NCBI GenBank assembly: GCA_964361095.1
Contig: CAYHZA010000001.1
Span: 1,456-65,455 of the forward strand
Source of the DNA: an uncultured Candidatus Saccharibacteria bacterium
Lineage (GTDB): Bacteria > Patescibacteriota > Minisyncoccia > UBA6257 > 2-01-FULL-56-20
Length of the DNA stretch: 64,000 bases
Reading direction: 5' to 3'
The translations under genes and the position numbers were made by a program. A model generated the notes under the pieces. That model searched no databases. It was not told where the DNA came from and saw nothing but the letters and a program-made list of their open reading frames with translations. Of this stretch, positions 142-53,814 are shown one piece after another (within the stretch, counting starts at the first letter, position 1; every line of letters starts with the position of its first letter).

Positions 142-154
142 TTTGGTGTGGGGG
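142..154. repeat. Right terminal inverted repeat TTTGGTGTGGGGG of the GIY-YIG mini-element family
   Basis: Immediately follows the GIY-YIG stop codon. Same arm as 222-236, 8486-8498 and 30765-30782. Confidence 0.6.
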
Positions 155-161
155 TAAACTT

Positions 162-389
162 ATGTCAAAGGAAATCGCCACTAAAACTGAGAAAGAAATT
201 CACCCCCACACCAAAGGGATTTTTGGTGTGGGGGTGTGCATCAAGTGCAAGAAGTGTGGCACTAAGGTTCTTTCTATTACGCGCGGTAGTTTAACCCCAT
301 GTAAGTGTGGGGCTATTTCTGTCGATGGCTCTAAAGAGTTAGTGAGAGTTATCGGTAAGCCAGAGGATTATGAAGAAATCCACAAATAA
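162..389 (+). CDS. Small zinc-ribbon protein (CxxCxxC...CxC) carrying an in-frame 36-bp palindromic insertion
   Basis: 75-aa ORF with Cys pairs CIKCKKCG...PCKCG. Codons 14-25 (HPHTKGIFGVGV) are encoded by the palindrome at 201-236. No clear RBS. Confidence 0.35.
   Translation: MSKEIATKTEKEIHPHTKGIFGVGVCIKCKKCGTKVLSITRGSLTPCKCGAISVDGSKELVRVIGKPEDYEEIHK
201..236. repeat. Solo (empty) hairpin copy of the CCCCCACACC element: cacccccacaccaaa-gggatt-tttggtgtgggggtg
   Basis: Perfect 15-bp inverted repeat with a 6-nt loop. Length 36 is a multiple of 3 and sits inside ORF 162-389. Confidence 0.7.
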
Positions 390-432
390 ATTTATGGCAA
401 GGAAATTATCAATAAAGTGGTAAAATGAAGGT

Positions 433-1281
433 ATGGCAAAAACTATAAAAATATTTTTGATTGACGGCGAACCTAACGGCCTAAAAACCGCTGAATTAAG
501 TAATTGGGTTGGTCAAGCAATCGTTATTCCTAGAAATAAACTTAAAGAAATAAAACAACGCCCTGAATGTAACAAGCCAGCAGTTTATTTTCTGATCGGT
601 AAAGAGAGCGAAGAAGCACTCTTGCCTACTGCATATGTAGGAGAGGCAGAAAATTTATGGAATAGACTATCTACTCATGATAGCTCAAAGGATTTTTGGC
701 AAACCGCAGTAGCGTTTGTGAGTAAAGATAATAATTTAACAAAAGCCCATGTTAGGTATCTTGAGAGTAGATGCTTAACTTTAGCAACTAAAGCAAAAAG
801 GTTTAATTTAGAAAATGGCACAGAATCATCTTTACCTTCTTTATCTGAAGCAGATATTGCCGAGATGGAAGAATTTTTGGAAAACCTGAAACTTTTGTTT
901 TCTGCTCTTGGCTACCCAATTTTGCAAGAAGTTATTTCTAAAGAACAAAAAAATATATCAGACCCTCTTTTTACTTGTAGGGGCAAAGATGCTTTAGCAA
1001 CTGGTCGTATGACAAACGACGGCTTTGTTGTTTATAAAGATTCAACCGCAACAACCGATATTTCGAAGGCAGTTATTGATCGTAATCAAAAAATTATAGA
1101 AAAGTTATTAAAAAATAATTATCTCGAAAAATTAAATGACGGCTTATATATTTTTGTTAAGGACTACGTCTTTAATAGTCCCAGTGCCGCATCTGATATT
1201 ACACTAGGCAATTCTACTAGCGGTTGGAAAAAATGGAAAACGGAAAGTGGCAAGACATTAGAAGAGGTTTATAGAAAATAA
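433..1281 (+). CDS. GIY-YIG (T5orf172-like) nuclease with C-terminal DUF4357-like domain
   Basis: N-terminal motifs VYFLIGK...AYVGEAENLWNRLSTH (GIY...YIG...R...H). The C-terminal tail SPSAASDITLGNSTSGWKKWKTESGKTLEEV matches the DUF4357 pattern as I recall it. Confidence 0.6.
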   Translation: MAKTIKIFLIDGEPNGLKTAELSNWVGQAIVIPRNKLKEIKQRPECNKPAVYFLIGKESEEALLPTAYVGEAENLWNRLSTHDSSKDFWQTAVAFVSKDNNLTKAHVRYLESRCLTLATKAKRFNLENGTESSLPSLSEADIAEMEEFLENLKLLFSALGYPILQEVISKEQKNISDPLFTCRGKDALATGRMTNDGFVVYKDSTATTDISKAVIDRNQKIIEKLLKNNYLEKLNDGLYIFVKDYVFNSPSAASDITLGNSTSGWKKWKTESGKTLEEVYRK

Positions 1282-1283
1282 AT

Positions 1284-3095
1284 ATGGGAAAGCTAAAAGA
1301 CATTCCAAAAATTGATAGACCGCGCGAACGATTCCTCCAAAAAGGAGCTGACGCACTTTCAAAAAGTGATCTTTTGGCAATTCTTTTAGGCAGTGGCATA
1401 AAAGGTAAAAATGTCAGGGAACTTTCAGAGAGTATTATCAAAAAATTTGGCAAAAACTTTTTAAATATAACCGTTGATGATCTTTTGGAAATTTCAGGGA
1501 TTGGCCAAGCCAAGGCATTACAAATTACTTCTGCAATTTCTTTGGTAAAAAGATTCTATGCGGACGAAAAATCAAACGAGACTATTATTAAAAATTCTCA
1601 AGATGTCCTATCATTCACCTACGATTTAAGAGATAAGAAAAAAGAACACTTGGTTTGTTTATACCTTAACGCAAGAAATTCTCTCCTCAAAAAGGAAATT
1701 GTTAGCGTAGGCTTACTAGATAAAACATTGCTCCATCCAAGAGAAATTTTTTATCCGGCAACAGAATTAAACGCCGCTAGTGTTATTTTAATTCACAACC
1801 ACCCATCGGGCGATTCTTCGCCAAGCGAAAAAGATAATCAAATTGTTGAAAAAATAGTTCAAGCAGGAGAAATAATGGGAATACCTGTTATTGATTTCAT
1901 TATTATCTCCGAAAATAATCATTATAGTTTTTATGAAAAACTAAGAAAGCAAAAAGAGACTTTTGATTATGTCGCTGACGGAATACAAGGGACACTCTTT
2001 GCAATATTTGAAGCTGAAAAACCAGCCTATGAAATAACTGCTGAAAAAATTCAAGAAAATTATTTCTACATCCCACAAGTAAAAGAAAATCACATCCAAT
2101 TACATAATCGCAGATATATAGGAAATAAACACAAACTAATTGAATGGATTTTTTCTATTATAAACAAAGAATGTAGTGGAAATTCTTTTGCAGATGTTTT
2201 TGCTGGGACGGGGGCTGTATCTGCTGTGGCGACAAAACACTTTAAAAAAGTATTATTAAATGATTTTTTACATTCCAATTACATAATATACCGTGCCTTT
2301 TTTGGAAAAGAAGCGTGGGACAAAAATAAGATAGATAGCATTATTAAGAGCTATAATAATATTTATGGCGGAGATTTAGAAGATAATTATTTTTCCAAAA
2401 ACTTTGGCGGTAAATTTTTCAGCAATAATTCAGCTAAAATTATCGGCTTTATTAGGGAAAACATTGAAGAAAACAAAAACAATTTAACGGAAAGAGAATA
2501 TTTTATGCTGATTGCGTCATTGCTTTATACGGCTGATAAAATCGCTAATACCGTTGGACATTTTGATGCTTATTTTAAAAAAGATTTTGTAAATGATAGT
2601 TTTTTCATGAAACCGATTGATCCGATTGATACCCAAGAAATATCTATTTTTCAAGAAGACACGAATGTTCTGGCAAAAAAGATAAAAGCAGATGTGGTTT
2701 ATATTGATCCGCCCTATAATTCCAGACAATACAGTCGTTTTTATCATGTACTTGAAACATTGACCAAATGGGATAAGCCAAAACTTTATGGAGTTGCGCT
2801 AAAACCAGATCCAGAAAATATGAGCGATTACTGCCGAGCTAATGCCAAAGAAAAATTTGCAGAACTTGTGAGAGATATTGATGCTCAATTTTTGGTTGTT
2901 TCGTATAATAATACATACGATTCAAAAAGTAATTCATCAAAAAATAAAATCACACTTCAAGAAATTGAAAAAATCTTACAAGCAAAAGGTAAAACGAAAG
3001 TTTTTGAAAAAAATTACAGACATTTTAATGCCGGTAATACAAATTTCAATAATCACAAAGAGTATTTGTTCGTAACTAAAAACCAACATGAATAA
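1284..3095 (+). CDS. Fusion protein: N-terminal RadC/JAB (JAMM) domain plus C-terminal Dam-like (D12 class) N6-adenine DNA methyltransferase
   Basis: RadC motifs include the HNHPSGDSSPSEKD JAMM signature and the helix-hairpin-helix-like ISGIGQAKA. The methyltransferase half has RRYIGNKHKL (Dam N-terminal motif), FAGTGAVS (motif I) and DPPY (motif IV). It is one continuous 603-aa ORF. Confidence 0.7.
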   Translation: MGKLKDIPKIDRPRERFLQKGADALSKSDLLAILLGSGIKGKNVRELSESIIKKFGKNFLNITVDDLLEISGIGQAKALQITSAISLVKRFYADEKSNETIIKNSQDVLSFTYDLRDKKKEHLVCLYLNARNSLLKKEIVSVGLLDKTLLHPREIFYPATELNAASVILIHNHPSGDSSPSEKDNQIVEKIVQAGEIMGIPVIDFIIISENNHYSFYEKLRKQKETFDYVADGIQGTLFAIFEAEKPAYEITAEKIQENYFYIPQVKENHIQLHNRRYIGNKHKLIEWIFSIINKECSGNSFADVFAGTGAVSAVATKHFKKVLLNDFLHSNYIIYRAFFGKEAWDKNKIDSIIKSYNNIYGGDLEDNYFSKNFGGKFFSNNSAKIIGFIRENIEENKNNLTEREYFMLIASLLYTADKIANTVGHFDAYFKKDFVNDSFFMKPIDPIDTQEISIFQEDTNVLAKKIKADVVYIDPPYNSRQYSRFYHVLETLTKWDKPKLYGVALKPDPENMSDYCRANAKEKFAELVRDIDAQFLVVSYNNTYDSKSNSSKNKITLQEIEKILQAKGKTKVFEKNYRHFNAGNTNFNNHKEYLFVTKNQHE

Positions 3096-3993
3096 CAAAA
3101 TCAAAAGGTCCCCGTTATTTTATGTCGGGGATAAATACAAACTAATGAAGCAATTGGTAAATTTATTTCCCAAAGAAGTGAATAATTTTTACGAACCTTT
3201 TGTTGGCGGAGGCACTGTATTTTTGAACATTGAAGCGAAGAAGTATTTTTTAAATGACATAAACAAACATCTGATTAACATACATAAGTTTTTGATGAAA
3301 AGCGCAGATAATCCAAGCTCGTTTTTTAAAAGCGTTGGAAAAGTAATATCCAAATATAAATTATCCAAATCTTACAAAGAAGATATAATTCCAGATTCAC
3401 TAAAAAAAGAATGGAAAAAAACTTATTTTGCCCGATTTAACAAAGAGGGATACGAAAAATTGAGAGTGTGTGTGAATAATAACAAAAAAAATGACCCTCT
3501 GATTTTGTATATTTTGCTTATATACGGGTTTAACAGAATGTTGAGATTTAATGGTGGTGGCAAATTTAATCTGCCTGTCGGGAATGTTGATTTTAACAAA
3601 AATGTAGTTAATGCCCTAAATGGCTATTTTGATTTTGTAAATAATAAGAAAATCACAATTACATCGAATGATTTTAAAAAGTTTTTTTTAGAGAAACAAT
3701 ATTTTAAAAATGATTTTGTTTATTTAGATCCGCCCTACTTAATAACCGCAAGCGAATATAATAAGTTTTGGGATTCAAAATCTGAATCTGACTTGTTAAA
3801 CTTAATCGATAATTTAGACAAAAGAGGCGTTAAATTTGCTTTATCAAATGTTACACATTACAACGGAAGCAAAAATGACCTTTTGATAGAGTGGATGGGA
3901 CAATATAAGGTACACAAAATTGAAAGCAACTATATTAGCTATCACAATAATGGGAAAAAGATAATCAAAGAAGTCTTGATCACTAACTATTAA
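3088..3993 (+). CDS. Dam-like (D12 class) N6-adenine DNA methyltransferase
   Basis: FYVGDKYKL N-terminal motif, EPFVGGGTVF (motif I), LDPPY (motif IV). Overlaps the upstream ORF by 8 nt, so operon-like. Confidence 0.75.
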   Translation: MNNKIKRSPLFYVGDKYKLMKQLVNLFPKEVNNFYEPFVGGGTVFLNIEAKKYFLNDINKHLINIHKFLMKSADNPSSFFKSVGKVISKYKLSKSYKEDIIPDSLKKEWKKTYFARFNKEGYEKLRVCVNNNKKNDPLILYILLIYGFNRMLRFNGGGKFNLPVGNVDFNKNVVNALNGYFDFVNNKKITITSNDFKKFFLEKQYFKNDFVYLDPPYLITASEYNKFWDSKSESDLLNLIDNLDKRGVKFALSNVTHYNGSKNDLLIEWMGQYKVHKIESNYISYHNNGKKIIKEVLITNY

Positions 3994-3997
3994 AATT

Positions 3998-5515
3998 ATG
4001 AAAAAACGACAATCCGAATATAAACCATTATTATTTACGACAACAATGAGAAATCCTGAACGACTAAAGGATTTTTTAACCGTGCTTGTTGAATATGATG
4101 GCGAAATTTTAACAAACGAAATTATTGATAAAGTAGCTAAAATCTTGATTCAAAAAGGGTTATATCAACCCATGAAAATAACGCAAGTAGTAAAAGGTAA
4201 ATGGAAAAACGAAATAGAACTAAGCGAGGCTGAAACCGAAAAAGTATTTGATGAGAATCCGCAAAGCCATAAAGAGGCAGGTTTTGAAAAAGGTTGGCCA
4301 TCGAGATTTGATACTTGGTTTAAAATTGCCAAAGAACTTGGTTTTGTTTGGTATTGGCCAAATGAAGAAATAAAATTTTCCGAAAGCGGGAAAATGCTAT
4401 TGGATAAAGAAAAACCTGAAAACGAATTGATGGTTTTTGCTAATGCTTTCGCAAAATATCAGCGACAAAATCCGTTTCGTAGAGTTTTAAATAAAAATGT
4501 ACCATTGATATTGCTGATACAAACAATAAAACTCCTAGACAATGACCCTGCCTATAATGGCACGGGTATTTCAAGGTTAGAAATTCCGTTATTGCTCTGT
4601 TGGCAAAATGATAATGCCGAAAGTTTATATCGTGAAATAAAAAAGTTGCGTAAAAAATATGGCTATTCGCCAAGCAATGAGATAGTTTTAGATCTTTGCT
4701 ATGAATTATTAAACGAAACCAAAAGAGACGATAATTCTATCTTAGGTGATTATCCCGATGATTTTATTCGCAAAATGCGTTTAACTGGTTTATTTTCTTT
4801 GCGTGGTGGCGGTCGTTTCATTGACATCAACACAAAAGAAATTGCGACTGTAAATTATATTTTAGAAAATTATATTTCTTATCCAACCTTTACGACTGAA
4901 AAAGATTATTTTGATTATATTGGCAAAGTGGACACCAATTTGATTGCAACGCTCTCCGTCTATGAAACTCCTGTTAGAACTACTAAAGCGGAGTTGGAAA
5001 AATGGGTAAATCATTATGCGTGGGAATCAATTAAAACCGAGATGCTTAATTTAGCGCAGAAAAAATCTTCCGAAGATGATATTTTGCGGGTGATAGAACA
5101 GCCTTTGCGTTTAGAGTTTTTAACCTCTTTGGCTATTCTCAAAAAATTACCAAATGTTGTAGTAAAGCCAAATTTTGTTTCAGATGATGAGGGTTTACCG
5201 ACAAGCTTTGCTTCTGGTGGAAACCCAGATATTGAATGTCTAGAAGATAAGGACACCGTATTGATAGAAGTGACTTTACTAACAGGCACACAGCAACATA
5301 TTAGAGAGTCATTTTCAGTACACCGACATCTTGAGGAGTATGTAAAGAAAGGCACTAAATCATATTCTGTGTTTATCTCCCCCAAATCTTTCATTGATAC
5401 TGAACGCTATTTTGATTTTATCAAAAAGGATGGTTTGGAAGTGAGAATTTCGAATATCGATAAATTCGTCCTCGGTCTTGAAGAAAAGACAACATTGAAC
5501 GAAGCGACTTTATGA
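3998..5515 (+). CDS. Candidate restriction endonuclease (type IIS-like, family unassigned; possibly AlwI-like)
   Basis: 505-aa ORF starting 5 nt after the second methyltransferase gene. The C-terminal segment GGNPDIECLEDKDTVLIEVTLLTG resembles a PD-(D/E)xK core. Two same-strand N6A methyltransferases upstream are typical of asymmetric-site type IIS systems. Family assignment is by context and memory only. Confidence 0.35.
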   Translation: MKKRQSEYKPLLFTTTMRNPERLKDFLTVLVEYDGEILTNEIIDKVAKILIQKGLYQPMKITQVVKGKWKNEIELSEAETEKVFDENPQSHKEAGFEKGWPSRFDTWFKIAKELGFVWYWPNEEIKFSESGKMLLDKEKPENELMVFANAFAKYQRQNPFRRVLNKNVPLILLIQTIKLLDNDPAYNGTGISRLEIPLLLCWQNDNAESLYREIKKLRKKYGYSPSNEIVLDLCYELLNETKRDDNSILGDYPDDFIRKMRLTGLFSLRGGGRFIDINTKEIATVNYILENYISYPTFTTEKDYFDYIGKVDTNLIATLSVYETPVRTTKAELEKWVNHYAWESIKTEMLNLAQKKSSEDDILRVIEQPLRLEFLTSLAILKKLPNVVVKPNFVSDDEGLPTSFASGGNPDIECLEDKDTVLIEVTLLTGTQQHIRESFSVHRHLEEYVKKGTKSYSVFISPKSFIDTERYFDFIKKDGLEVRISNIDKFVLGLEEKTTLNEATL

Positions 5516-5553
5516 TTGTAAAAAATTAGAATCAATTTACGAGAGCTAAATTT

Positions 5554-7461
5554 ATGGAAGATATTAAAGCAACAATTCACGGAGACGCTACAAGTGATCA
5601 AATTGAAGCAATTGACCACATTGGCAGTCATGCAAGATTACTCGCTGGACCCGGAACGGGAAAAACAAAAACGCTTACTCGGCGCGTACTTTCTTTGATT
5701 CTCCAACATAATGCCGACCCCGATTCAATTCTCTTACTTACGTTCACTCGTTTAGCCGCCGCTCAACTGAAAGATGAGATCAAAAAAGTGTTAGAACCTT
5801 TGGGCAAAACCATTCCACAAGTATCAACGCTTCACTCCTTTGCATTAAGGCAGATTCTTTATAATTCGAGCAGAATTGACACATTACCAAGACCAATCAG
5901 AATAGCCGATGACTGGGAAGAACGGTATATCATTCAAGAAGATTTAAAAAAAGTTTTAAATCTCAAAGAAATTGGCGATGTTCAAAAATTGATCAATCAG
6001 CTTTCAACTGACTGGGAAACTTTGAGAATTGATGAAATTGGCTGGGAGCAACAATTTCCAAACCCCGCTTTTCTTGGTGCGTGGCGAAGCCACAAAGATC
6101 AATATGGCGAAACACTAAGGGCGGAACTTGTTTATCAACTGAAAAAGCAGTTAAACCAAAGCAGGGATTTTCAATTAGACAAAGAGTATAAACATATTCT
6201 GATTGACGAGTATCAAGACCTGAACGCTTGCGATCTTGCCATAGTCAATGAATTAGCAAAGCGAGGCGCGGAATTATTTGTTGCGGGAGATGATGACCAG
6301 AGTATCTACGGCTTCCGTTTCGCAACCCCCGCAGGTATAAGAAATTTTGAACAGATATATCAAAATTCCAAAAAATTGGCGTTAGAAATATGTTTTCGTT
6401 GTGATAAAAACATATTACATTCAGCAGAATTTGTAGCGAGCCTTGATCCTGCACGCTTGCCAAAACCAACACGACCAAAAGACGAAGCTGAAGATGGTGA
6501 GGTTTTGATAATTGGTTTTAAGGATCAAAGTCATGAAGCTGAAATTATAGCCAAGAAAATAAAAAGTTTGATTGACGCAGACATCAAGCCAGATCAAATC
6601 ACAATTTTACTAAGAAACGACCGAAACAGCTTATTATCCAAGCCGATTATTGAAGCCCTAAAAAAGTATAGCGTCGATGTATCTTTGACGACTGATTCGG
6701 AATTAGAAAATAACAAGGAGTATCGAACAGTTTTATCAATAATTCGTTTGTTGGTTGATCAAAATGATTGTTTAGCTTGGCGAACATTATTACAAATCAA
6801 CAAAACTAATGGCTTGGGCGATGAGTGTATAAAAAGTATATGGAATTATGCGCAAAGCAAGGGAATACGTTTTAGTGTGGCTTTACAAAAAATAGCCGAA
6901 TCTCCAAGCGAATTACAAAAGTTTGGCCAAAAAATAGCAAAATTTGTTTCCGAAATAAACGTGGCAATCGTGGAACTCAAAGCCATTGAAAGTCCGACCG
7001 AAGCGATAAACGCAACAGTTGATAAATTTATGGGTGAAGGAGAGATAAAAGAACAAGTGAAAAAATATTTTGTTGGAATTTTGGAGAATCAAGAAAAACC
7101 TGATCTTGAGAATTTAATTAAAATAGTAAGTACTTCGTCGGAATATATTGAGCAAGAAACAAAAGAAAACGCTGTTAATATACTCACTATGCACCAAGCA
7201 AAAGGATTATCTTTTGATGTATGTTTTATAGTTGGTGCGGAAGATGAATATATTCCCGGACGAAATACAGGAGATAAGGAGGGCGATGAAAGAAGATTAC
7301 TGTATGTGTCCATGACAAGAGCGAGGCATAAATTATTTATCAGCTATTGTAATAAACGAACCGGACAACAAAGACATTCAGGAAGTAATAGCGGAACAGA
7401 AAAAAGAACATTAACCAGATTTCTTAGAGATTCCAAAATCCCAATAAAACAGGTAGAATAA
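5554..7461 (+). CDS. UvrD/PcrA-like superfamily-1 DNA helicase
   Basis: Walker A AGPGTGKT. Motifs LLLTFTRLAAAQL, DEYQDLN, and the C-terminal ILTMHQAKGLSFD...RRLLYVSMTRARHKL. Confidence 0.8.
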   Translation: MEDIKATIHGDATSDQIEAIDHIGSHARLLAGPGTGKTKTLTRRVLSLILQHNADPDSILLLTFTRLAAAQLKDEIKKVLEPLGKTIPQVSTLHSFALRQILYNSSRIDTLPRPIRIADDWEERYIIQEDLKKVLNLKEIGDVQKLINQLSTDWETLRIDEIGWEQQFPNPAFLGAWRSHKDQYGETLRAELVYQLKKQLNQSRDFQLDKEYKHILIDEYQDLNACDLAIVNELAKRGAELFVAGDDDQSIYGFRFATPAGIRNFEQIYQNSKKLALEICFRCDKNILHSAEFVASLDPARLPKPTRPKDEAEDGEVLIIGFKDQSHEAEIIAKKIKSLIDADIKPDQITILLRNDRNSLLSKPIIEALKKYSVDVSLTTDSELENNKEYRTVLSIIRLLVDQNDCLAWRTLLQINKTNGLGDECIKSIWNYAQSKGIRFSVALQKIAESPSELQKFGQKIAKFVSEINVAIVELKAIESPTEAINATVDKFMGEGEIKEQVKKYFVGILENQEKPDLENLIKIVSTSSEYIEQETKENAVNILTMHQAKGLSFDVCFIVGAEDEYIPGRNTGDKEGDERRLLYVSMTRARHKLFISYCNKRTGQQRHSGSNSGTEKRTLTRFLRDSKIPIKQVE

Positions 7462-8392: not shown

Positions 8393-8468
8393 GCAATTAT
8401 GACTCGGTGCAATTTGCTTAATATTTCTTTAGTTAAGCAAATCGTCCCACGCTCACAAATTTGGTTTT

Positions 8469-8499
8469 ACCCCCACACCAAAAACTTTGGTGTGGGGGT
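8469..8499. repeat. Solo hairpin copy of the CCCCCACACC element: acccccacaccaaa-aac-tttggtgtgggggt
   Basis: Perfect 13-14-bp inverted repeat with a 3-nt loop in an intergenic region. Confidence 0.7.
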
Positions 8500-8551
8500 T
8501 TACGGCTCGGACCGGATTCAACTGGTGGCAAACTCTTACTCTCGGTACAAA

Positions 8552-8789
8552 GCTCGCCCCGTTAGATAATTTCATATCTAACGGGGCGAGCCACCCCAGT
8601 AGTACAGCGAAGCTGACTACGGGGCAGGCAAGGGCAACCAAGTGGGGAATCAGGGGTTACAGGTTCTCGTACTTGGCCAGCAATCCTTTCACCCCGTTAG
8701 ATGCAAAGTTATCTAACGGGGTGAATCTGATCCAAAACCACGGTAGGATACCCCAGTAGTAGAACGTGAAGCGTTCACTACGGGGCAGG
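8552..8789. repeat. Two tandem ~136-bp units, each a long hairpin (CCCCGTTAGAT...ATCTAACGGGG) followed by a second hairpin (CCCCAGTAGTA...ACTACGGGGCAGG)
   Basis: Unit A is 8552-8628 and unit B is 8688-8789. The outer stems covary (gctcg/cgagc versus ttcac/gtgaa) while the inner stem is conserved. That pattern suggests a selected RNA or DNA structure. Confidence 0.55.
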
Positions 8790-8988: not shown

Positions 8989-9411
8989 ATGAAAACGTCG
9001 AAAGGTATCGTATTGTTTTGTGCGGTATTGATCATCCTTATTTCGTCGGCATGCAGAGAAATAAAGATGGTTCTCTCGCCTGAAATGACAGAGGAAGCGA
9101 CTGTCGCTGATCTCGTCTACACGCCGTCAAATCACGGGAGCGACATCAGCCCGACCATGAACATGAACGGAGACCTCGGCGTTGCATTTACGAGTATCGA
9201 CATTTTGGAACGGTATGCAGTAGTCTTCCAGTGCCAGCATGAAAAGTTCATAGTCCAGAGCGACCAGACGAAAGCGAAGGAGCTTTGGACGCGCCTGAAG
9301 AAAGACCAGAAGGTGACCGTCAGATACAGAGAAAGATACGAGGAAACATTCGACGACGAGAAACTCGTCGAACGACGTCTGAAGAAATATGATTTCATCG
9401 ACGCCAACTGA
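8989..9411 (+). CDS. Small secreted or lipoprotein of unknown function
   Basis: N-terminal signal peptide MKTSKGIVLFCAVLIILISSAC (lipobox-like ISSAC). Good RBS. GC-rich relative to neighbours. Confidence 0.5.
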   Translation: MKTSKGIVLFCAVLIILISSACREIKMVLSPEMTEEATVADLVYTPSNHGSDISPTMNMNGDLGVAFTSIDILERYAVVFQCQHEKFIVQSDQTKAKELWTRLKKDQKVTVRYRERYEETFDDEKLVERRLKKYDFIDAN

Positions 9412-9446
9412 AGAGCGGCTGTTTCCTTCCCTTGGGGAACAACACG

Positions 9447-9470
9447 GGACAGGTACGAAAGTGCCTGTCC
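9447..9470 (+). terminator. Stem-loop ggacaggtac-gaaa-gtgcctgtcc followed by attttact
   Basis: 10-bp stem (one G-U pair) with a GAAA tetraloop, 36 nt after the stop of 8989-9411. Confidence 0.5.
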
Positions 9471-9640
9471 ATTTTACTATTAAAAATTATATTTTCTAAT
9501 TCTATTTTTACCTTACCCCAATCTACAGTTCTAAACGCGTCTAACAGATGGAACCAAAAAAACCAGCGGCTTAATGTCGCTAGTTTCTTGTTTTGTTGCG
9601 TGAGGAATCGAACCGAAGGTCGACGAATGACGATAAGGAA

Positions 9641-9699
9641 ATACTGAGCGTAGTAACGCGAATGTGCGAGGAAGTACTGAGCGCAACAGCGCGAATGTG
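9641..9699. repeat. Two tandem ~33-bp repeats (a[a/g]tactgagcg[t/c]a..a.cgcgaatgtg)
   Basis: Lies within the 640-bp non-coding region 9412-10054. Confidence 0.5.
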
Positions 9700-10001
9700 T
9701 ACTACTTAAAAAATCGCAGTCTCGAACGATCCGCCAGCTGGCGGAGAGAGTCGAATTTCTAAAGGTCCCAGAGGGATTGCGACTTGTATTCAAAATCGTT
9801 ACGCTTTTGAACAAGTCGGGAAACTGAGATTTGTAACCCCGCTATGCGCGGACAAATCGGGAGCCTACCCGCGGAGCTCGGAAATCAGATGCCCCTTGTT
9901 GGGGCATTTCAGATTTCGCTTCTTGGATTTGTGTATCAGATTTGGCAAAATAATTTCAAAAACTTGCCCCGTTGGAAGCCGTAGGCTTTCTTTCGGGGTT
10001 T

Positions 10002-29621: not shown

Positions 29622-30482
29622 ATGGAGGGTTTGCACGATAAAAAATTAAAATTCTTAGAGGAGATGTCGAATGTCTTGCGTCAAGACGTGATAAAAACAC
29701 TCGTCGAGGCGGGGAGCGGACACTCGGCGGGTCCCTTGGGTATGGCGGACATCTTTACGACGCTTTATTTCCATATTTTAAATCACGATCCGAAGAAACC
29801 GGAGTGGCCGGATCGGGATCGCGTGGTTCTCTCGAATGGGCATATTTGCCCGATTTTATACGTTACGCTTGCCCACGCTGGCTATTTCAAGCTCGAAGAG
29901 TTAAAGACGCTCCGTAAGCTCAATTCTCGTCTCCAGGGCCATCCGCACCGTAAATCATTGCCGGGAGTTGAAACCACGTCCGGCCCTTTGGGTTCGGGGA
30001 TTTCGCAGGCGATCGGTATCGCGCTCGCGGCAAAGCTTGACGGCAAGCGGTATCGCACCTATTGTCTGACGTCCGACGGCGAACACGAGGAGGGAAATAC
30101 ATGGGAGGCGATAATGTTTGCGGGAAAAAACAGATTAAGCAATCTTACGGTTGTCGTGGATCGCAATAACATTCAAATCGACGGTTTTACCGAAACGATA
30201 ATGCCCCTTGAGCCGTTTGCCGAAAAGTACAAATCTTTCAACTGGTATGTGATTGAAGTGAACGGCCACAGCCATCAGGATTTTGTGGATGCTGTTGCCG
30301 AAGCGCACGCGATTCATGAACGCCCGACGGTAATTATCGCGCATACGATTCCCGGAAAAGGGGTGAGTTTTATGGAAGATGACTTTCGCTGGCATGGTAA
30401 ACCACCAAACAAAGAAGAAGCTAATAAGGCATTAAAAGAGCTAAGAACTTTAGGTGATCGCATCGCCAGCGAACATCAATAA
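29622..30482 (+). CDS. tkt: Transketolase, N-terminal (TPP-binding) subunit; its last ~25 codons are supplied by the inserted element
   Basis: GHSAGPLGMADI, LSNGH, GPLGSGISQAIGIALA, TSDGEHEEG. The 3' end (30393-30482) has AT-rich, recoded codon usage. Confidence 0.85.
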   Translation: MEGLHDKKLKFLEEMSNVLRQDVIKTLVEAGSGHSAGPLGMADIFTTLYFHILNHDPKKPEWPDRDRVVLSNGHICPILYVTLAHAGYFKLEELKTLRKLNSRLQGHPHRKSLPGVETTSGPLGSGISQAIGIALAAKLDGKRYRTYCLTSDGEHEEGNTWEAIMFAGKNRLSNLTVVVDRNNIQIDGFTETIMPLEPFAEKYKSFNWYVIEVNGHSHQDFVDAVAEAHAIHERPTVIIAHTIPGKGVSFMEDDFRWHGKPPNKEEANKALKELRTLGDRIASEHQ

Positions 30483-30782
30483 GTGGCACGCCCCCACACC
30501 TAACGAGTTTTATGTTCTACATCTATATGTTAAAGAGCAAAAAGGATAATATGTTATATGTAGGTTCTACTGGTGATCTACGAGAAAGGTTTGCTTTGCA
30601 TAATGCAGGGAAAATAGTTTCTACCAAAGGTCGCCGCCCGTTTGAACTGGTTTATTATGAAGCTTATCGCGCCGAGGATGATGCCCGTACACGCGAGCAT
30701 AACCTAAAGCTTCGTTCTAATGCCCTAAACCAGTTGAAACGCAGATTGAAGAAAAGTCTCGAAACTCGTTAGGTGTGGGGGC
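30393..30782 (+). mobile_element. GIY-YIG mini-element: recoded transketolase 3' end, 18-bp terminal inverted repeats (gcccccacacctaacgag / ctcgttaggtgtgggggc) and the GIY-YIG gene
   Basis: Inverted repeats lie at 30490-30507 and 30765-30782. Upstream of the left repeat is a synonymous, AT-rich recoding of the host gene end. Host sequence resumes at 30783. Confidence 0.7.
30512..30772 (+). CDS. GIY-YIG nuclease (YhbQ/UPF0213-like, 86 aa)
   Basis: MLYVGSTGDLRERFALHN (GIY...YIG...R...H). The stop codon lies inside the right inverted repeat. Confidence 0.8.
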   Translation: MFYIYMLKSKKDNMLYVGSTGDLRERFALHNAGKIVSTKGRRPFELVYYEAYRAEDDARTREHNLKLRSNALNQLKRRLKKSLETR

Positions 30783-30871
30783 ACGGGAAACCGCCGAAGC
30801 CGGACGAAGCACGGATTGCACTTAAGGAACTGCGGACATTAGGGGAGAGGATAAAGAGCGAACACCAATAA
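30783..30871 (+). pseudogene. Displaced original 3' end of the transketolase N-subunit gene (HGKPPKPDEARIALKELRTLGERIKSEHQ*)
   Basis: GC-rich host-like codons. Translation parallels ...HGKPPNKEEANKALKELRTLGDRIASEHQ* at the end of the intact ORF. Confidence 0.65.
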
Positions 30872-30875: not shown

Positions 30876-31541
30876 ATGAAAACAGAAAAAACCAACTACA
30901 TCATTCTTCTTATACTCGTCTTAGTGACGGCGATTGGCGTTGCGGCATACATAACACAAGCACGGAGGATATATAAACTTCCGGATGCAAGCCAGTTATC
31001 TATCGCCCACCGTGGCAACGGCACCAGTATTGATGTTAGCACTTGGAAAACGTATCGGAATGAGCAGTATGGGTTTGAGTTCAGATATCCAGATGGATTG
31101 CAGATTGAGGAGTATAAAAATGGGTTTGAATATAGTGTTTACGCAATATGGTTTAAAAACATAAATGTACGGATTGGAGTTTCAAATGCTGCCTCGCGAG
31201 AAAGTTATAATACTCGATGCGAGAGCGACGACACGGGAATGTGCATTGGATTTGAGTTTCTTAGATGCGAAAGTCAGCAGGATGTTTTGTGCAGTGAGTA
31301 TTCCTATGTACCCATTGGAGGGTTTTGGCAAAAGAAGGCCTCTATCTACAATCAGGATCAATCATTGCGAGGAGAATTTGAAGTTGACTTTAGTTTTGAT
31401 GGTCGAGTTATATCGCCAGCCGTTGTTCTAACCGACGAGATAGTCTTTGATTCAGTAGCTAGCGGTCAAATTGATAAACGCAATGAAAAAAACTTGAGAA
31501 TTTTTGAAGAGATTCTTTCCACTTTCAAATTCATAAGATAA
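30876..31541 (+). CDS. Hypothetical protein with N-terminal TM anchor
   Basis: 221 aa. Its stop overlaps the start of tktC (TAATG). Confidence 0.4.
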   Translation: MKTEKTNYIILLILVLVTAIGVAAYITQARRIYKLPDASQLSIAHRGNGTSIDVSTWKTYRNEQYGFEFRYPDGLQIEEYKNGFEYSVYAIWFKNINVRIGVSNAASRESYNTRCESDDTGMCIGFEFLRCESQQDVLCSEYSYVPIGGFWQKKASIYNQDQSLRGEFEVDFSFDGRVISPAVVLTDEIVFDSVASGQIDKRNEKNLRIFEEILSTFKFIR

Positions 31542-46156: not shown

Positions 46157-46189
46157 ACAGCAATTCTCGACATCAAGGAGGAAGAAGAG

Positions 46190-46567: not shown

Positions 46568-46593
46568 GATACAGCTCCCATAGAAATTCAAAA

Positions 46594-46624: not shown

Positions 46625-46630
46625 ATGGTG

Positions 46631-46663
46631 TTTGCAAACGCCAAACATATCTTTAAGATATAG
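46631..46663. repeat. 33-bp direct repeat copy 2 (tttgcaaacgccaaacatatctttaagatatag)
   Basis: Duplicate of the tatD 3' end, 474 bp downstream of copy 1. Confidence 0.7.
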
Positions 46664-46705
46664 GCAGAAGCTTGATAAACTACCTTTGATGGTTTGGAGG
46701 ATATT

Positions 46706-47266
46706 GTGGAAAAAACCAGAAGAAAGATCTGTGTGTTTTGCGCTTCGGCTCCGAGCACTCCGATCGAACACGTGAAACTTGCCGAACAATTCGGGAAAGA
46801 CCTCGCCGTGGGCGGGTTCGATCTGGTATGGGGCGGCTGTGAAGCGGCCTCGATGGGGGCTCTTGCAAGAGGCGTTCAATCCGGAGGCGGCAAGGTATTC
46901 GGCGTCATTTTGGAACGCATGTTGGAAGAGGGGCTTGTCTATCGTTCTTCCGACATCCTCTACGCGGAAGAAACCCTCTCAGCGCGCAAACAGCTCATGG
47001 GAGAAATGGCGGATGCGTTCGTGGTTTTGCCGGGAGGATTTGGAACCCTCGACGAATTCGCTTCCCGCCTTGCGGAATCCATTATTGACGCAAAGCACGG
47101 AATCCAGCACAAGAAAATCGCCGTTTTGAACTGGGAGAGATTTTACAGCGACCTTGTCTGTTTTCTCGAAGGTCTTTATGCCTACCGGTTCGCCGACATC
47201 TCGTATCGGGACCTGTATAGGATTCTTCCAGATACGCAATCCGTTCTTGAGTACCTGAAGGAATAA
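46706..47266 (+). CDS. LOG-family protein (cytokinin riboside 5'-monophosphate phosphoribohydrolase-like)
   Basis: PGGFGTLDEF motif. GTG start preceded by ggagg. Confidence 0.7.
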   Translation: MEKTRRKICVFCASAPSTPIEHVKLAEQFGKDLAVGGFDLVWGGCEAASMGALARGVQSGGGKVFGVILERMLEEGLVYRSSDILYAEETLSARKQLMGEMADAFVVLPGGFGTLDEFASRLAESIIDAKHGIQHKKIAVLNWERFYSDLVCFLEGLYAYRFADISYRDLYRILPDTQSVLEYLKE

Positions 47267-47296
47267 AATTTTTTACCAAGATTAGGGAGGTATTCC

Positions 47297-47467
47297 GTGA
47301 AGAAGAAACAAGAACCCGAACTTCGCCTACGTCAGCTTACGCAGGAGGAGATGCGAGAAGCGCTTGTGCGAGAGGCGGCAGAGCTTGAAGCGGCATTTCG
47401 AGAGTTGGATCGAATCCGCTGTGGCGTGTCACAGAGATTTCTTCGGGAGACGAAATTCAATGTCTAA
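47297..47467 (+). CDS. Small hypothetical protein (56 aa, GTG start)
   Basis: Strong RBS gggagg 7 nt upstream. Overlaps the next small ORF. Confidence 0.3.
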   Translation: MKKKQEPELRLRQLTQEEMREALVREAAELEAAFRELDRIRCGVSQRFLRETKFNV

Positions 47468-47630
47468 TGAGCAATCGGAAAAGAAAATAGTTTTTGAAGT
47501 TCGTGAGCTTTCCCACGAGGAAATCGTCGAGTGTGCTCGCGAGGGTCGGCGGCTTCGGCGGGAGATGCAAAAAGAGATCGATGGGACTCGGCACATTTCG
47601 TCCGAAGCGTGGAACTTCCACGTTGACTAA
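47460..47630 (+). CDS. Small hypothetical protein (56 aa) translationally coupled to 47297-47467
   Basis: ATG overlaps the upstream stop (ATGTCTAATGAG). Followed by a terminator. Confidence 0.3.
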   Translation: MSNEQSEKKIVFEVRELSHEEIVECAREGRRLRREMQKEIDGTRHISSEAWNFHVD

Positions 47631-47663
47631 TCCCTGCATACTCATTTTTCGGTGTTTCATCAT

Positions 47664-47696
47664 GACCGCGGAGCATTATTCTGCGGTCTTTTTTTT
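47664..47696 (+). terminator. Rho-independent terminator gaccgcggagc-attatt-ctgcggtc plus T8
   Basis: GC stem plus a T-run. Confidence 0.6.
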
Positions 47697-47726
47697 GCTC
47701 ATTTTTTGCGGTAAAATCTTAATACC

Positions 47727-50333: not shown

Positions 50334-51247
50334 TGGCAAAAGTATTTGGCGCCGCGATTTTAATCCTTGCCTTGATTGTTCTTATTGTTATAGTACGTTC
50401 CGATTCCAATCCCTTAAGTCGGATTTTTACCCGTTCCTCGAGTACTTTTGGAGGTTTTGGCACAAGCACGATTTCGCAGAGACCCTCTCCTCCTGCTTAC
50501 ACTCCGCCGCCACGAACTTCGCCATCTGGCGGATCACCTCCTCTGGCGCAAACGACCTCGACGATAAATCCCCGTGACATTCCGCAGGGATTTACGCTTG
50601 CCCAGCTTTCGCCTTATTTCAAAAAAGTGCGCATTGCTTCGCTCTCTGCCGGTTCGGAGACTAGTTATAGCGTGGTAACACTTCGCGCGGGAATCAGCGG
50701 GTCAAGTACGGTAAATATTACCGGTTGGCAGTTCAAATCGAACCGCGGCGGACAAATTATGCCGCGCGCGATCAATAGTTACGATCCGAGCGGACTTACG
50801 AGCGAGAGCGATATTGTACTTAAAAACGGGGATTTCGTGAGGATCTATTCGACGGTAAGTCCTATCGGGAAAAATCTTCGCCTTAATTCCTGCGTTGGGT
50901 ATCTCGAAAATCATTTGAATTTTAATCCGCGGCTTTCGGTAAGTTGCCCGCAGATTGATTATTCGGGGATCTCTTCATTTACCGGCAGATGTCAGGATTA
51001 TATTCGCTCGCTCGGATCGTGCCGCGAGCCGGTGGCAAATCCGCCGATACCGCTTACCGATTACGCGTGCAGAGATTATGTGAGCGTCTTAAATTATCGC
51101 GGGTGTTACGACCGCCATCGCGGCGATTCTGATTTCTTGAAAAACGAATGGCGCGTGTGGACAGGGAGTAAATTCCTTGATTTTCGTCACGACCGAGTAT
51201 ACCTCTTTGATACGCGAGGCTTGCTGGTAGACGCTTATACGTACTAA
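50333..51247 (+). CDS. Hypothetical secreted/membrane-anchored Pro/Ser-rich protein with Cys-rich C-terminus
   Basis: N-terminal TM helix. ATG overlaps the leuS stop. Confidence 0.4.
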   Translation: MAKVFGAAILILALIVLIVIVRSDSNPLSRIFTRSSSTFGGFGTSTISQRPSPPAYTPPPRTSPSGGSPPLAQTTSTINPRDIPQGFTLAQLSPYFKKVRIASLSAGSETSYSVVTLRAGISGSSTVNITGWQFKSNRGGQIMPRAINSYDPSGLTSESDIVLKNGDFVRIYSTVSPIGKNLRLNSCVGYLENHLNFNPRLSVSCPQIDYSGISSFTGRCQDYIRSLGSCREPVANPPIPLTDYACRDYVSVLNYRGCYDRHRGDSDFLKNEWRVWTGSKFLDFRHDRVYLFDTRGLLVDAYTY

Positions 51248-51253
51248 GAATTT

Positions 51254-52303
51254 CTATTTTCGTTCGGCGAGAGCGATCTGCACGTTGAATTTTTTTATTC
51301 CGCGGAGGATGAGGAGGTTCACTTTGTCGCCTACGGCAAGATTTTCGAGTACGTCCTGGATCGGATGCTCGCGGTCGATTTTCTGATCGTTGCACTCAAG
51401 AATAATATCTTTTTCTTTGATGCCCGCCTTTTCCGCAGGTCCCTTGGAGAGTACGCCGTGGTCATGGGGAGTTTCGCTCATTATGAGAGCTCCATAACTT
51501 ACCGGAAGTTTCATTTTGTCCTTTAAATTTTCGTCAATGGTTAAGTAGCGGACGCCGAGCATTGGGCGTAGAATACGGCCGTATTTTTTGAGATCATTAA
51601 AGTCGCGGTGCGCGGCGTTAATAGGAATGGCAAAACCGATATTTTGCGCTCCAAATACGATTGCGGCGTTGATGCCGATCGCAAAGCCATTCATATCAAC
51701 AAGAGGTCCGCCGGAGTTTCCGGGGTTGATTGCGGCGTCGGTTTGAATCAAGCCGCGCATTTCCTGAGGAGGGGACATCGGATCTGCCTGCGCGGAGATT
51801 GATCGTGAAAGTCCCGAGACGATGCCGAGAGATACGGTATTTTTGAAAAGCCCCAGCGCGTTTCCAATCGCGATTACGCTTTGACCGAGGTCAAGTTTTG
51901 TAGCATCTCCAAGCTCAACAACCGGCATTTCGAAGGCTTCGATTTTGATAATCGCGACGTCGTTTATGGGATCGCGACTCAATACTTTCCCGGGAAATTT
52001 CCTTCCATCGTCGGTTAGTATCGTATATTCGGCCTTGGGGTCGCTGATGACGTGTTTGTTGGTGAGTATCAAACCGTCGGCTTCAACAATAAAGCCGGAA
52101 CCGCCGCCGATTTGCACCATTCCATTTTTATCGACAAGTTCGGGAGGGATTTTAAGTTTTGGTCCTTTTGGTCCGCCCGGAAGAAAAGGGAGAAGTTCCC
52201 GAGGAATTTCTTTTTCGAGATCTTCGAGATGTTTTGTAATGACGATCGAAACGACCGCCGGCATTACTTTTTTAATCGTCGCGATAATTTGTTTTTCTTC
52301 CAT
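51254..52303 (-). CDS. htrA: HtrA/DegP-family serine protease with PDZ domain
   Basis: GSGFIV...TNKHVI (His), TDAAINPGNSGGPL (Ser) motifs. PDZ at the C-terminus. Start at MEEKQ, preceded by aaaggtggg. Confidence 0.8.
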   Translation of the reverse strand: MEEKQIIATIKKVMPAVVSIVITKHLEDLEKEIPRELLPFLPGGPKGPKLKIPPELVDKNGMVQIGGGSGFIVEADGLILTNKHVISDPKAEYTILTDDGRKFPGKVLSRDPINDVAIIKIEAFEMPVVELGDATKLDLGQSVIAIGNALGLFKNTVSLGIVSGLSRSISAQADPMSPPQEMRGLIQTDAAINPGNSGGPLVDMNGFAIGINAAIVFGAQNIGFAIPINAAHRDFNDLKKYGRILRPMLGVRYLTIDENLKDKMKLPVSYGALIMSETPHDHGVLSKGPAEKAGIKEKDIILECNDQKIDREHPIQDVLENLAVGDKVNLLILRGIKKFNVQIALAERK

Positions 52304-52438
52304 CCCACCTTTAAAGAATTGCAAAGCAGTCACAATTCTTAATTTTAGTTTTTGACCGTTTTTTCAAGTATATAACACATTGCTTATGAAATACAGTATA
52401 TAGAAAATAAGAAAACAGATTCTTTAAAGGTGGGGGAT

Positions 52439-52476
52439 CCCGTTACAATCAGAACCCTAAGCCGGATTGTAACGGG
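52439..52476. repeat. Hairpin CCCGTTACAATC-(14 nt)-GATTGTAACGGG
   Basis: 12-bp perfect stem. Another CCCGTTA-type palindrome. Confidence 0.5.
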
Positions 52477-52542
52477 GGTAATTTAAACAAAAATCGCTCC
52501 GAGGGTGCGGAACGATTTTTGCTGCAACGTATGTATCAATTA

Positions 52543-53361
52543 CTACGGAGTCGAAGTCGAAGTTGTTGTAGTTGTTGCATTTTTGGCCTCGCCGAATGCT
52601 ACCTTAAGGTCAGCCCTCGCCTTTTCCATCGCTGTCTTGAAATCACTATGCGCCTTTTCAAAGGCGGATTTTCGAGTGGTCTTTAGTGCCTCGAAGCCAG
52701 TCTTGAAGGTATCTTGAGCTTTTTTTACGGCATTCGTAAAGGTTTCACGGGCGGACGCGAGAGCGGTTTTTAAGCCCTCCCGTATCGTGTCACGATCAGC
52801 TCCCGCGGCGCAGTCGGTTTTCGCCTTGGCGATTGCCGCTGATTTTGCGGTTTTTGCCGCGACCATCGCCTGGTCGATTGCCACCTTTCTTTCATCTATG
52901 AGCTTCTGAACTCCGGTAGTGAAAGAAGAAATCGAGGCATCGACAGCTTTGCGGCGTGCGGAGATAGCATTCGCAACCGCTGTTTGGAACGCCGTTACTG
53001 CCGCTTTTTGCGCGTCAGTTTGCGCTCGTTCCATAAGCTTCGTGATGTGCTCTTGCGTTTTTCCATCCTGTTTCACACGGTTTTCGGAAAGTTTGTTTTT
53101 GCGGTCTTCAACTTTCTTTTCGACCATCTCTTTCCGTTCCATGCGGCGATCCTTGATGTTTTCCGTTCGCTCCATCAAGTTTTGGTCAAGTTTGGAGAGC
53201 CGCTCATTGAGCATGCTACAGAAGTTTGCTGTGTTGCCCGGTGTTGAACTTGGTGCGGCCCCTTTTCTCTCTACCCGCTCCGCCTGGGCAAAACTGCCCA
53301 CCGGCGCGAGAAGAACAACGAGGGTCAAGCTTCCGACTATTTTTTTAATTGCTGTGTTCAT
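52543..53361 (-). CDS. Hypothetical secreted alpha-helical (Ala/Lys-rich) protein
   Basis: Signal peptide and repetitive helical sequence. Confidence 0.45.
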   Translation of the reverse strand: MNTAIKKIVGSLTLVVLLAPVGSFAQAERVERKGAAPSSTPGNTANFCSMLNERLSKLDQNLMERTENIKDRRMERKEMVEKKVEDRKNKLSENRVKQDGKTQEHITKLMERAQTDAQKAAVTAFQTAVANAISARRKAVDASISSFTTGVQKLIDERKVAIDQAMVAAKTAKSAAIAKAKTDCAAGADRDTIREGLKTALASARETFTNAVKKAQDTFKTGFEALKTTRKSAFEKAHSDFKTAMEKARADLKVAFGEAKNATTTTTSTSTP

Positions 53362-53363
53362 GG

Positions 53364-53660
53364 TTAGAATTGACTCCCGTCAAAAGACTTGCCAAAATCG
53401 CTGATGGCTTGGTCGTTTTCCGCAAGAATTGAAGGATCATTTTCGAGTGTGGGAGTTTCGTCGGCCGCGCCGATGCTCATGATGATCGCGGCAGTCGCGT
53501 CGTCAGGATTACCGTTTGCCGCCGGCGGGTTTTGCACATTGGCCGGATTTGTCGCCCCCGTGTTTTCGTTCGAAGGGGTCATCGGCTGGCTATTCATAAA
53601 GAAATACAGCCCGACAACCACCAAAACTACTACAATACCGATAATATATTTTTTTGCCAT
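53364..53660 (-). CDS. Small membrane-anchored hypothetical protein
   Basis: N-terminal TM helix. 98 aa. Confidence 0.4.
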   Translation of the reverse strand: MAKKYIIGIVVVLVVVGLYFFMNSQPMTPSNENTGATNPANVQNPPAANGNPDDATAAIIMSIGAADETPTLENDPSILAENDQAISDFGKSFDGSQF

Positions 53661-53676
53661 GATTTTGGATTATATA

Positions 53677-53814
53677 CCCCCACACCTAAATGAAATAATT
53701 ATCATCTCGAAGTTCTTGCTTCATCCCGCATCTTAAGAAGTTCGGAAGAACATAGACCTAATCTCAAGGCGGAAAGAGCGTGGTGAGCTTCGCAATTTCA
53801 TTTAGGTGTGGGGG
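53677..53814. mobile_element. MITE-like miniature copy of the CCCCCACACC element: perfect 19-bp terminal inverted repeats (cccccacacctaaatgaaa / tttcatttaggtgtggggg) around ~100 bp with no ORF
   Basis: The inverted repeats match the transketolase-associated GIY-YIG element subtype (cctaa). The interior carries its own small inverted repeat. Confidence 0.7.

Follow-up and report, generated by a model that had tools for sequence, protein, structure and literature searches.

The 64,000-nucleotide (nt) stretch analysed here, from an uncultured groundwater Candidatus Saccharibacteria bacterium (contig CAYHZA010000001.1; hereafter the window) contains copies of a very small unit in which a gene for an ~86-amino-acid (aa) GIY-YIG nuclease lies inside an inverted repeat, together with gene-less units bearing the same kind of ends. 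Whole units insert with target duplication at a short, defined target, and one of them, a 29-bp palindrome at 8470-8498, is polymorphic between co-occurring strains. We consider it likely that these units form a widespread, ultra-compact mobile family, comprising the gene-bearing form and its gene-less derivatives, with movement that would be driven by the nuclease. A mobile family of occupied and empty units had already been proposed in the initial annotation of the window, and this proposal is supported by target-site duplications (TSDs) on both kinds of unit, a filled/empty polymorphism, the many sequence contexts in which the units occur and their lack of synteny.

Architecture of the GIY-YIG units

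The complete gene-bearing element of the window (copy 4) measures 291 bp from its C-run to its G-run and is bounded by a perfect inverted repeat of 21 nt (30490-30510/30762-30782). Its open reading frame (ORF; 30512-30772) encodes 86 aa and matches Pfam GIY-YIG with an E-value of 1.9e-16; a single base separates the left arm from the ATG, and the TAG stop lies within the right arm. Folded as single-stranded DNA (ssDNA), the element is predicted to form a 21-bp terminal stem (z = -6.5). The Pfam match spans residues 1-73 of the protein, and Y5, Y16, R26, H30 and E62 were invariant among 28 sequences. AlphaFold2 yielded a confident GIY-YIG fold (mean pLDDT 90), the protein consisting of the catalytic domain only, with no added DNA-binding domain. 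By sequence, the nearest solved relatives were UPF0213 BH0048 (1zg2, E 3e-12) and EF2693 (E 1e-6), with 1ywl likewise belonging to UPF0213; by fold, they were Slx1 (TM 0.65), the I-TevI catalytic domain and UvrC. GIY-YIG was the sole family above the Pfam curated cut-off (T5orf172 reached 17.6 bits, below its cut-off of 20), NCBIfam gave only a sub-threshold match to a group I intron endonuclease model, and none of the known transposase catalytic classes (DDE, HUH, serine, tyrosine) was matched in Pfam or NCBIfam.

Homologs of this protein numbered more than 120 at 44-74% identity, nearly all of 83-88 aa. Contigs of the GTDB set with one genome per species held 596 relatives, mostly in Candidate Phyla Radiation (CPR)/Patescibacteria, with a few labelled Omnitrophota, Elusimicrobia or Margulisiibacteriota. 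Viral contigs gave only 13 weak relatives, so that phages are not an obvious vehicle. Among 80 homologous loci from other genomes examined for arms, 53 had the GIY-YIG gene bracketed by a near-perfect inverted repeat of 13-23 nt (score of at least 12). The outer end of the arm is a conserved C-rich motif with five subtypes:

Subtype A: CCCCCACAC
Subtype B: (G)CCCCTCAC
Subtype C: CCCGCACAC
Subtype D: CCCCGTTAG
Subtype E: CCCCCCACC

The inner 10-15 nt of the arms (arm positions 4-19) vary by locus, and out to position ~19 the arms were 69-98% complementary within one locus compared with 25-49% across loci. The nearest protein neighbour carried the same repeat subtype in 34 of 47 cases (expected, 14), indicating that protein and repeat evolve together. 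Gene-bearing elements had lengths of 273-325 bp (median 295); in their typical form the left arm reaches the ATG or stops immediately upstream of it, and the last codons and the stop are covered by the right arm. Across five subtypes and several phyla, the GIY-YIG gene was the only ORF ever seen between the arms; a Shine-Dalgarno sequence accompanied 4 of 54 elements, compared with 16% of ORF calls, which are crude. The same loci contain gene-less copies of all five subtypes, either as 24-60-bp palindromes or as 60-240-bp units resembling miniature inverted-repeat transposable elements (MITEs). Arm-pair distances in 2.0 Mb grouped at up to 60, 61-240 and 241-340 bp, and, apart from cross-pairs of neighbouring elements, no insertion-sequence (IS)-sized element with the same termini was found in these 2.0 Mb.

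Within the window, the motif CCCCCACACC occurred nine times exactly and 11 times with at most one mismatch (expected, 1.5), and none of 100 shuffled windows held 11 or more occurrences. The individual copies are as follows:

1-141, forward strand: 3' part of the copy 1 GIY-YIG gene, clipped by the window edge (Pfam GIY-YIG, E 3.5e-4)
142-154: right arm of copy 1, TTTGGTGTGGGGG, then TAAA at 155-158 (from the motif and comparison with contig L228)
201-236: solo type-A palindrome (copy 2), core 203-234, in the 5' part of the DUF7695 ORF 162-389
8470-8498: solo type-A palindrome (copy 3), 29 bp, with the TSD TTTA at 8466-8469 and 8499-8502
8554-8589: solo type-D palindrome CCCCGTTAGAT..ATCTAACGGGG, core 8557-8586, from the repeat search
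8689-8724: second solo type-D palindrome CCCCGTTAGAT..ATCTAACGGGG, core 8692-8721, from the repeat search
30491-30781, forward strand: complete gene-bearing element (copy 4), 291 bp, C-run to G-run
53677-53814: ORF-less copy 5, 138 bp, perfect 20-nt arms, no TSD

All five numbered copies had been recognized at these places in the initial annotation, and its expectation that more might exist proved right: 8554-8589 and 8689-8724 are solo palindromes as well, of a different subtype. Several of its details required revision: copy 3 is present but shorter than the 31 bp given for it (8469-8499), copy 4 is indeed a full element with an intact GIY-YIG gene but has a perfect repeat of 21 nt instead of 18 bp, and copy 5, correctly described as a 138-bp ORF-less unit, has arms of 20 and not 19 nt. 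A stop codon inside the right repeat, claimed for each GIY-YIG gene, was found for copy 4, whereas in copy 1 the stop directly precedes the arm.

The entire gene of copy 1 (84 aa) is present on the extended contig L228 at 9455-9709, and its protein shares ~62% aa identity with that of copy 4. A good left arm is absent from copy 1; in its place, L228 carries a whole type-A hairpin of 38 bp (9383-9420), just left of the window start and between a Fic gene and copy 1, with TAAA at both sides, the same TAAA that follows the right arm of copy 1. Fic genes adjoin the GIY-YIG element in L009-L014 too. For copy 2, the 36-bp hairpin at 201-236 stands, and its reported location inside a zinc-ribbon ORF is uncertain. 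The DUF7695 zinc-ribbon ORF (162-389) reads through the hairpin and its domain match begins at residue 27, just past it. Since in-frame GTG codons are also present in the right arm, the real DUF7695 start may be in or after the hairpin. No direct repeat flanks this hairpin (TTCA/TGTG). The type-D palindrome at 8554-8589 shares its terminal motif with the inverted repeats that enclose GIY-YIG genes in L066, L080 and L087. Copy 5 was also found in L232 and L233. On the strain contig L234 (1-105), its right arm and adjacent interior are shared, and the left interior is different and closes an ORF reading ...SDYEFLYELLKMRDEARTSR-stop. As this variant interior ends an unrelated ORF, the interior of copy 5 appears polymorphic and not GIY-YIG-derived; an origin of the 138-bp copy by decay of a GIY-YIG gene is thus unsupported.

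Target-site duplications and an empty site

For scoring of TSDs, the element boundaries were set at the C-run and the G-run, and the control for gene-bearing elements consisted of left and right flanks paired from different loci. Direct repeats of 4 nt or more flanked 22 of 54 gene-bearing elements (41%), compared with 2.2% in these mismatched-flank controls. A metagenome scan for type-A palindromes yielded at least 120 loci. Among the matches listed, 41.5% of 123 distinct solo hairpins carried a duplication of at least 4 nt (controls, 5.7%), and 39% of these 123 had one of exactly 4 nt (controls, 5.5%). ORF-less copies of all five subtypes carry TSDs, 4 nt long in most of the copies (e.g. CAAA, TGAA, TTGA, TTTA, TAAA, TCAA, TAGA), and identical palindromes of 27-29 bp occurred in up to 11 flanking contexts with differing duplications.

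From 47 reconstructed empty sites we derived the target consensus g/T-N-N-A/c (slashes at the edges of the duplicated bases). Position 1 was T in 40 of the 47 sites and C in the remainder, position 4 was A in 40 and otherwise G, a G preceded the site in 20 and a C followed it in 26. The type-A TSD thus comprises 4 bp at g/TNNA/c, less often CNNG. With C as its first base and G as its last, the element recreates the target context at both junctions, a possible reason for the clustering and nesting of copies. Such clustering is seen in the TAAA-flanked 38-bp hairpin beside copy 1 and in tandem MITEs, each bounded by CCGGTAG, before a tRNA.

An empty counterpart was identified for copy 3. Contig L237 (Hain_H51_01um_R2 contig 50), from the same sample, aligns to window positions 8415-8740 and is short by exactly 33 bp, corresponding to the 29-bp palindrome at 8470-8498 plus one TTTA. 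Its empty site reads GGT-TTTA-CGGCTCG, whereas the hairpin is present in the window and in L235. The adjoining 100 nt hold many substitutions, so that L237 represents a distinct strain haplotype and not a collapsed palindrome. Of the neighbouring type-D units, 8554-8589 is missing in L237 within a non-precise indel of 69 nt, and 8689-8724 is present there.

Insertions at transketolase and tRNA genes

Copy 4 lies at the end of the gene for the transketolase N-terminal subunit (transketolase-N), where the following features surround it:

30393-30483, forward strand: foreign low-GC patch of 91 nt, comprising transketolase-N codons 258-286, the stop and one more base
30487-30490: left copy of the TSD CACG, inside a relic TGGCACG of the transketolase W-H-G codons
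30782-30871, forward strand: right copy of the TSD CACG (30782-30785) and the displaced native transketolase-N 3' end (HGKPPKPDEARIALKELRTLGERIKSEHQ-stop)

The G+C content at third codon positions (GC3) of transketolase-N has a change point at codon 257, from 0.576 before to 0.241 after, and the last 30 codons, encoding the C-terminus in use (HGKPPNKEEANKALKELRTLGDRIASEHQ-stop), have a GC3 of 0.233 compared with 0.576 for the gene body. Directly after the element and in frame, the displaced end HGKPPKPDEARIALKELRTLGERIKSEHQ-stop shows a GC3 of 0.567, like the gene body, and matches the C-termini of the nearest relatives P0122 and P0124, whereas the C-terminus in use resembles distant transketolase homologs and not the closest. 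The relic TGGCACG of the native W-H-G codons is retained between the new stop and the left arm. Taken together, the GC3 and C-terminal match of the displaced end, the GC3 change at codon 257 and the W-H-G relic indicate an insertion at codon 258. The element thus hit transketolase at this codon, with a 91-nt foreign 3' end restoring the frame and the native end displaced downstream. The insertion would have been made harmless, either later or simultaneously, by this replacement 3' end.

The flank-similarity score at the transketolase locus was 106, compared with a null maximum of 46, and among 55 loci a duplicated gene end was found at this one only. Duplication of flanking gene ends as a general feature was accordingly rejected, the weak matches at L061 and L067 among these 55 loci reflecting tRNA-to-tRNA similarity. 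Between the genes for the transketolase N and C subunits lies a low-GC gene of 221 aa (30876-31541; GC3 0.39, weak PsbP_2 match), possibly a further insertion within the split transketolase operon.

At 12 loci, mainly of subtype B and also of A and D, a same-strand tRNA or tmRNA gene begins within the right arm. The left flank of these elements keeps a relic of the tRNA's first ~10 nt, as at L061, gaGGGGCGGTTA-[GCCCCTCAC...GTGAGGGGC]-GGTTAGCTCAGT, and the TSD is 6-9 nt long, e.g. CGGTTAG or CCGGTAG. The tRNA gene remains whole because the terminal GGGG(C) of the element substitutes for the tRNA's own first bases, and the nuclease ORF stops 0-1 nt upstream of the tRNA, within its leader. Judged from these junctions, one subfamily inserts at the 5' end of tRNA or tmRNA genes, within the first ~10 nt, and rebuilds that end from its own G-rich terminus.

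Rfam, at gathering thresholds, returned only four tRNAs for the whole window, and no RNA family matched the hairpins. Two of the tRNA genes in the window have repeats of their own. tRNA-Ser (54626-54713) is surrounded (54378-54769) by two direct repeats, of 33 nt at 85% and of 50 nt at 76%, one of which overlaps the tRNA 3' end, possibly as an attachment site or as what is left of a partial tRNA duplication. tRNA-Ala(TGC) at 59412-59486 is bracketed by a 23-nt inverted repeat of 96% complementarity (59396-59498), which extends the acceptor stem well past the tRNA. Next to copy 1 lies a low-GC island (30-39%; 433-7461) encoding a DUF4357 protein that matches GIY-YIG weakly, a fusion of RadC and a D12-class methyltransferase, another D12 methyltransferase and a restriction enzyme of the AlwI family; by its predicted gene content it looks like a restriction-modification or defence island. 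A GIY-YIG gene follows TspO in L005 and a hairpin follows TspO in the window, which would make these loci a candidate occupied/empty pair if they are orthologous; the called TspO genes are 132 and 260 aa long, respectively.

Relation to known systems and mode of movement

The Ssn nucleases, the closest published system, are single-domain GIY-YIG proteins of ~94 aa (cd10448) that bind and cut only ssDNA, beside their own hairpin; in 42% of homologs a cognate hairpin repeat (NTS/SRM) stands on either side of the gene (Chenal et al. 2025, Nat Commun, PMC11893778). The authors of that study note the IS-like layout NTS-ssnA-NTS, propose domestication and do not demonstrate transposition of Ssn/NTS (PMC11893778). 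The initial remark that small GIY-YIG genes flanked by terminal inverted repeats were undescribed has hence been partly overtaken by this 2025 account of a small GIY-YIG gene flanked by hairpin repeats (PMC11893778). Both systems have a single-domain GIY-YIG protein of ~90 aa, hairpin repeats on both sides, many solo repeats and co-variation of repeat and protein (PMC11893778). They differ in that a short hairpin, complete in itself and with a conserved GTC-type extension at its 5' side, forms each Ssn flank (PMC11893778), whereas the gene of the CPR family usually lies inside one long-range inverted repeat, with one arm per side; copy 1 is flanked by whole hairpins at either side. The nearest solved sequence relatives of the 86-aa protein, by contrast, belong to UPF0213. 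The published SRM consensus HGTCWYN(0-2)YYVSBRHN(0-5)WNVSBRGN(0-2)RNCYNB matched neither strand of the window nor any hairpin or arm, and a tblastn search of plasmids returned Firmicute yazA-like matches only (40-43% identity) and no Ssn sequence. TSDs are nowhere mentioned in the text of the Ssn paper, nor are empty sites, MITE forms, tRNA targeting or CPR hosts in the sections considered (PMC11893778). Our search of the literature for GIY-YIG transposons or for their TSDs in prokaryotes found nothing matching. What is new here is the direct evidence of insertion; the architecture is related to Ssn/SRM and differs in the gene inside the hairpin, in the repeat and in the CPR hosts.

Among other systems, the repetitive extragenic palindromes (REP) with their RAYT genes (REPtrons) and the IS200-IS605 elements likewise place a small nuclease gene between inverted palindromic repeats, with many solo copies and with the hairpin probably recognised as ssDNA. 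RAYT and TnpA are HUH/Y1 enzymes that act through covalent intermediates and leave no target duplication. With its GIY-YIG enzyme, the absence of any HUH or Y1 domain from the 86-aa protein in a Pfam scan and its 4-bp duplications, the CPR family is analogous to them in architecture only. Correia elements of Neisseria and Rickettsia palindromic elements share with the gene-less forms the short multi-copy units, the inverted-repeat ends, the short TSDs and an occasional location within or beside genes. Those elements are 100-150 bp long and have no linked enzyme gene, whereas in the CPR family the gene-less forms can be as short as 24-30 bp and are accompanied by a cognate gene-bearing form. 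GIY-YIG homing endonucleases (I-TevI, Seg) have in common with the family the catalytic fold, a short degenerate cleavage motif (CNNNG for I-TevI) and selfish behaviour. Homing enzymes carry long DNA-binding extensions, have their genes in introns or inteins or standing alone among phage genes, rely on homologous repair into one cognate allele and lack inverted repeats and TSDs; the 86-aa protein is a catalytic domain only and comes with both. The closest solved sequence relatives, UPF0213, are stand-alone GIY-YIG proteins of the YhbQ-YazA kind. Like transposons with terminal inverted repeats and MITE derivatives, the CPR family possesses terminal inverted repeats, a TSD of fixed length (4 bp for type A) and, in one case, a filled and an empty site, but its encoded protein falls outside the DDE, HUH, serine and tyrosine classes.

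A mode of movement may be proposed. The autonomous form (273-325 bp) would consist of essentially one gene, and deletion derivatives would retain both ends only. The nuclease would recognise the stem of the two paired arms, probably in ssDNA like the related Ssn nucleases, and cut the base of this stem beside YNNR, at element ends as well as at look-alike G-YNNR-C targets. Host repair and ligation would then fill and seal the junctions, and gene-less copies would move in trans. We infer that movement is driven by the nuclease itself. Several points weigh against this inference. GIY-YIG enzymes are hydrolases for which, to our knowledge, no strand-transfer activity is known. Since a hydrolytic GIY-YIG enzyme alone cannot explain joining, integration must need other factors. 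A clean duplication is missing in about 59% of copies, and 27 of the 80 homologs have no detectable inverted repeat. The type-D palindromes are flanked by inverted and not direct 4-nt sequences at 8557 (CTCG..CGAG) and 8692 (TTCA..TGAA), for which a simple staggered cut is insufficient. The sole precise filled/empty pair concerns a gene-less hairpin, and the metagenome contig ends close to it. Copies that share a genome are old and have diverged, with 62% aa identity in the window and 78% DNA identity in one Saccharibacteria metagenome-assembled genome, so that recent movement would be conjectural for gene-bearing copies. No near-identical element-free transketolase allele was found in the protein database; the next-best protein is only 84% identical, and a direct empty allele for the gene-bearing copy was thus not found. 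That the ~290-bp unit is a fully autonomous transposon, with its 86-aa hydrolytic GIY-YIG nuclease acting as a transposase that cuts the stem of its own ends, is a tentative proposal to which we give somewhat less than even chances.

The prediction that CPR bacteria rely on DNA uptake would suit a different explanation, namely that the units are a domesticated, Ssn-like host system, in which the hairpins are cis sites for a host ssDNA nuclease controlling transforming DNA or recombination and the marks of insertion are left over from an earlier mobile phase. The old, diverged GIY-YIG copies within genomes and the homologs without an inverted repeat (27 of 80) fit this explanation, as do the Ssn biology and the domestication hypothesis for Neisseria NTS/SsnA (PMC11893778). 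We nevertheless regard it as unlikely in view of the precise filled/empty hairpin polymorphism in co-occurring strains and of identical hairpins with intact 4-bp duplications at many sites; moreover, the insertions in a core gene (transketolase, disrupted) and in tRNA genes look selfish and not like placed regulatory sites. Domestication and mobility are not mutually exclusive, and a domesticated role is compatible with the data but leaves the fresh-looking insertions unexplained. Alternatively, an unlinked transposase might move the units, such as a DDE enzyme with a 4-bp TSD, the GIY-YIG protein being a passenger or a homing endonuclease in the palindrome loop. Several DDE families typically duplicate 4 bp when they insert at short palindromic targets, joining of DNA is not known for GIY-YIG enzymes, and one locus (L009) has an rve-type integrase gene nearby. 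On the other side, GIY-YIG is always the sole enclosed ORF in five subtypes and several phyla, the repeat subtype co-varies with GIY-YIG phylogeny, no IS-sized class with the same arms exists in the 2.0 Mb, and the Ssn relatives are described as recognising their own flanking hairpins (PMC11893778), which together make an unlinked transposase improbable.

A reading of the palindromes as generic intrinsic terminators or REP-like repeats without a specific GIY-YIG link is very improbable and was rejected by the enrichment and duplication statistics. The stems are G+C-rich, often intergenic and often followed by TTTA, and a few metagenome matches with GC-rich flanks and longer stems resemble ordinary terminators. 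Yet the hairpin at 8470 was not called as a terminator and that at 201-236 only weakly, on the minus strand; no Rfam family was matched, and direct 4-bp duplications and an empty site are foreign to terminators. Being direct repeats that differ between copies, the duplications are not part of a fixed palindromic consensus. The initial annotation had named a generic repeat not enriched next to GIY-YIG genes, and fixed syntenic positions of these genes, as observations that would speak against mobility. Instead, arms bracket 53 of the 80 homologous genes, and the genomic contexts of the GIY-YIG homologs are not syntenic.

If the nuclease is indeed the engine of the mobile family, GIY-YIG would be added to the transposase chemistries of prokaryotes, and the family would be a new enzymatic class of element. 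No other autonomous mobile element known from cellular genomes would be as small as this ~290-bp unit, and its smallest mobilisable derivatives would be the 24-30-bp palindromes. Ssn/hairpin systems would gain direct evidence of unit movement in the form of TSDs, an empty site and the target g/TNNA/c, and in practical terms each subtype would offer a very small nuclease already paired with the stem sequence cognate to it. The reduced genomes of CPR/Patescibacteria are thought to be poor in mobile elements, and the family bears on the dynamics of these genomes. The subfamily at tRNA 5' ends would represent a way to ride in the tRNA leader without destroying the gene, a 'harmless landing'.

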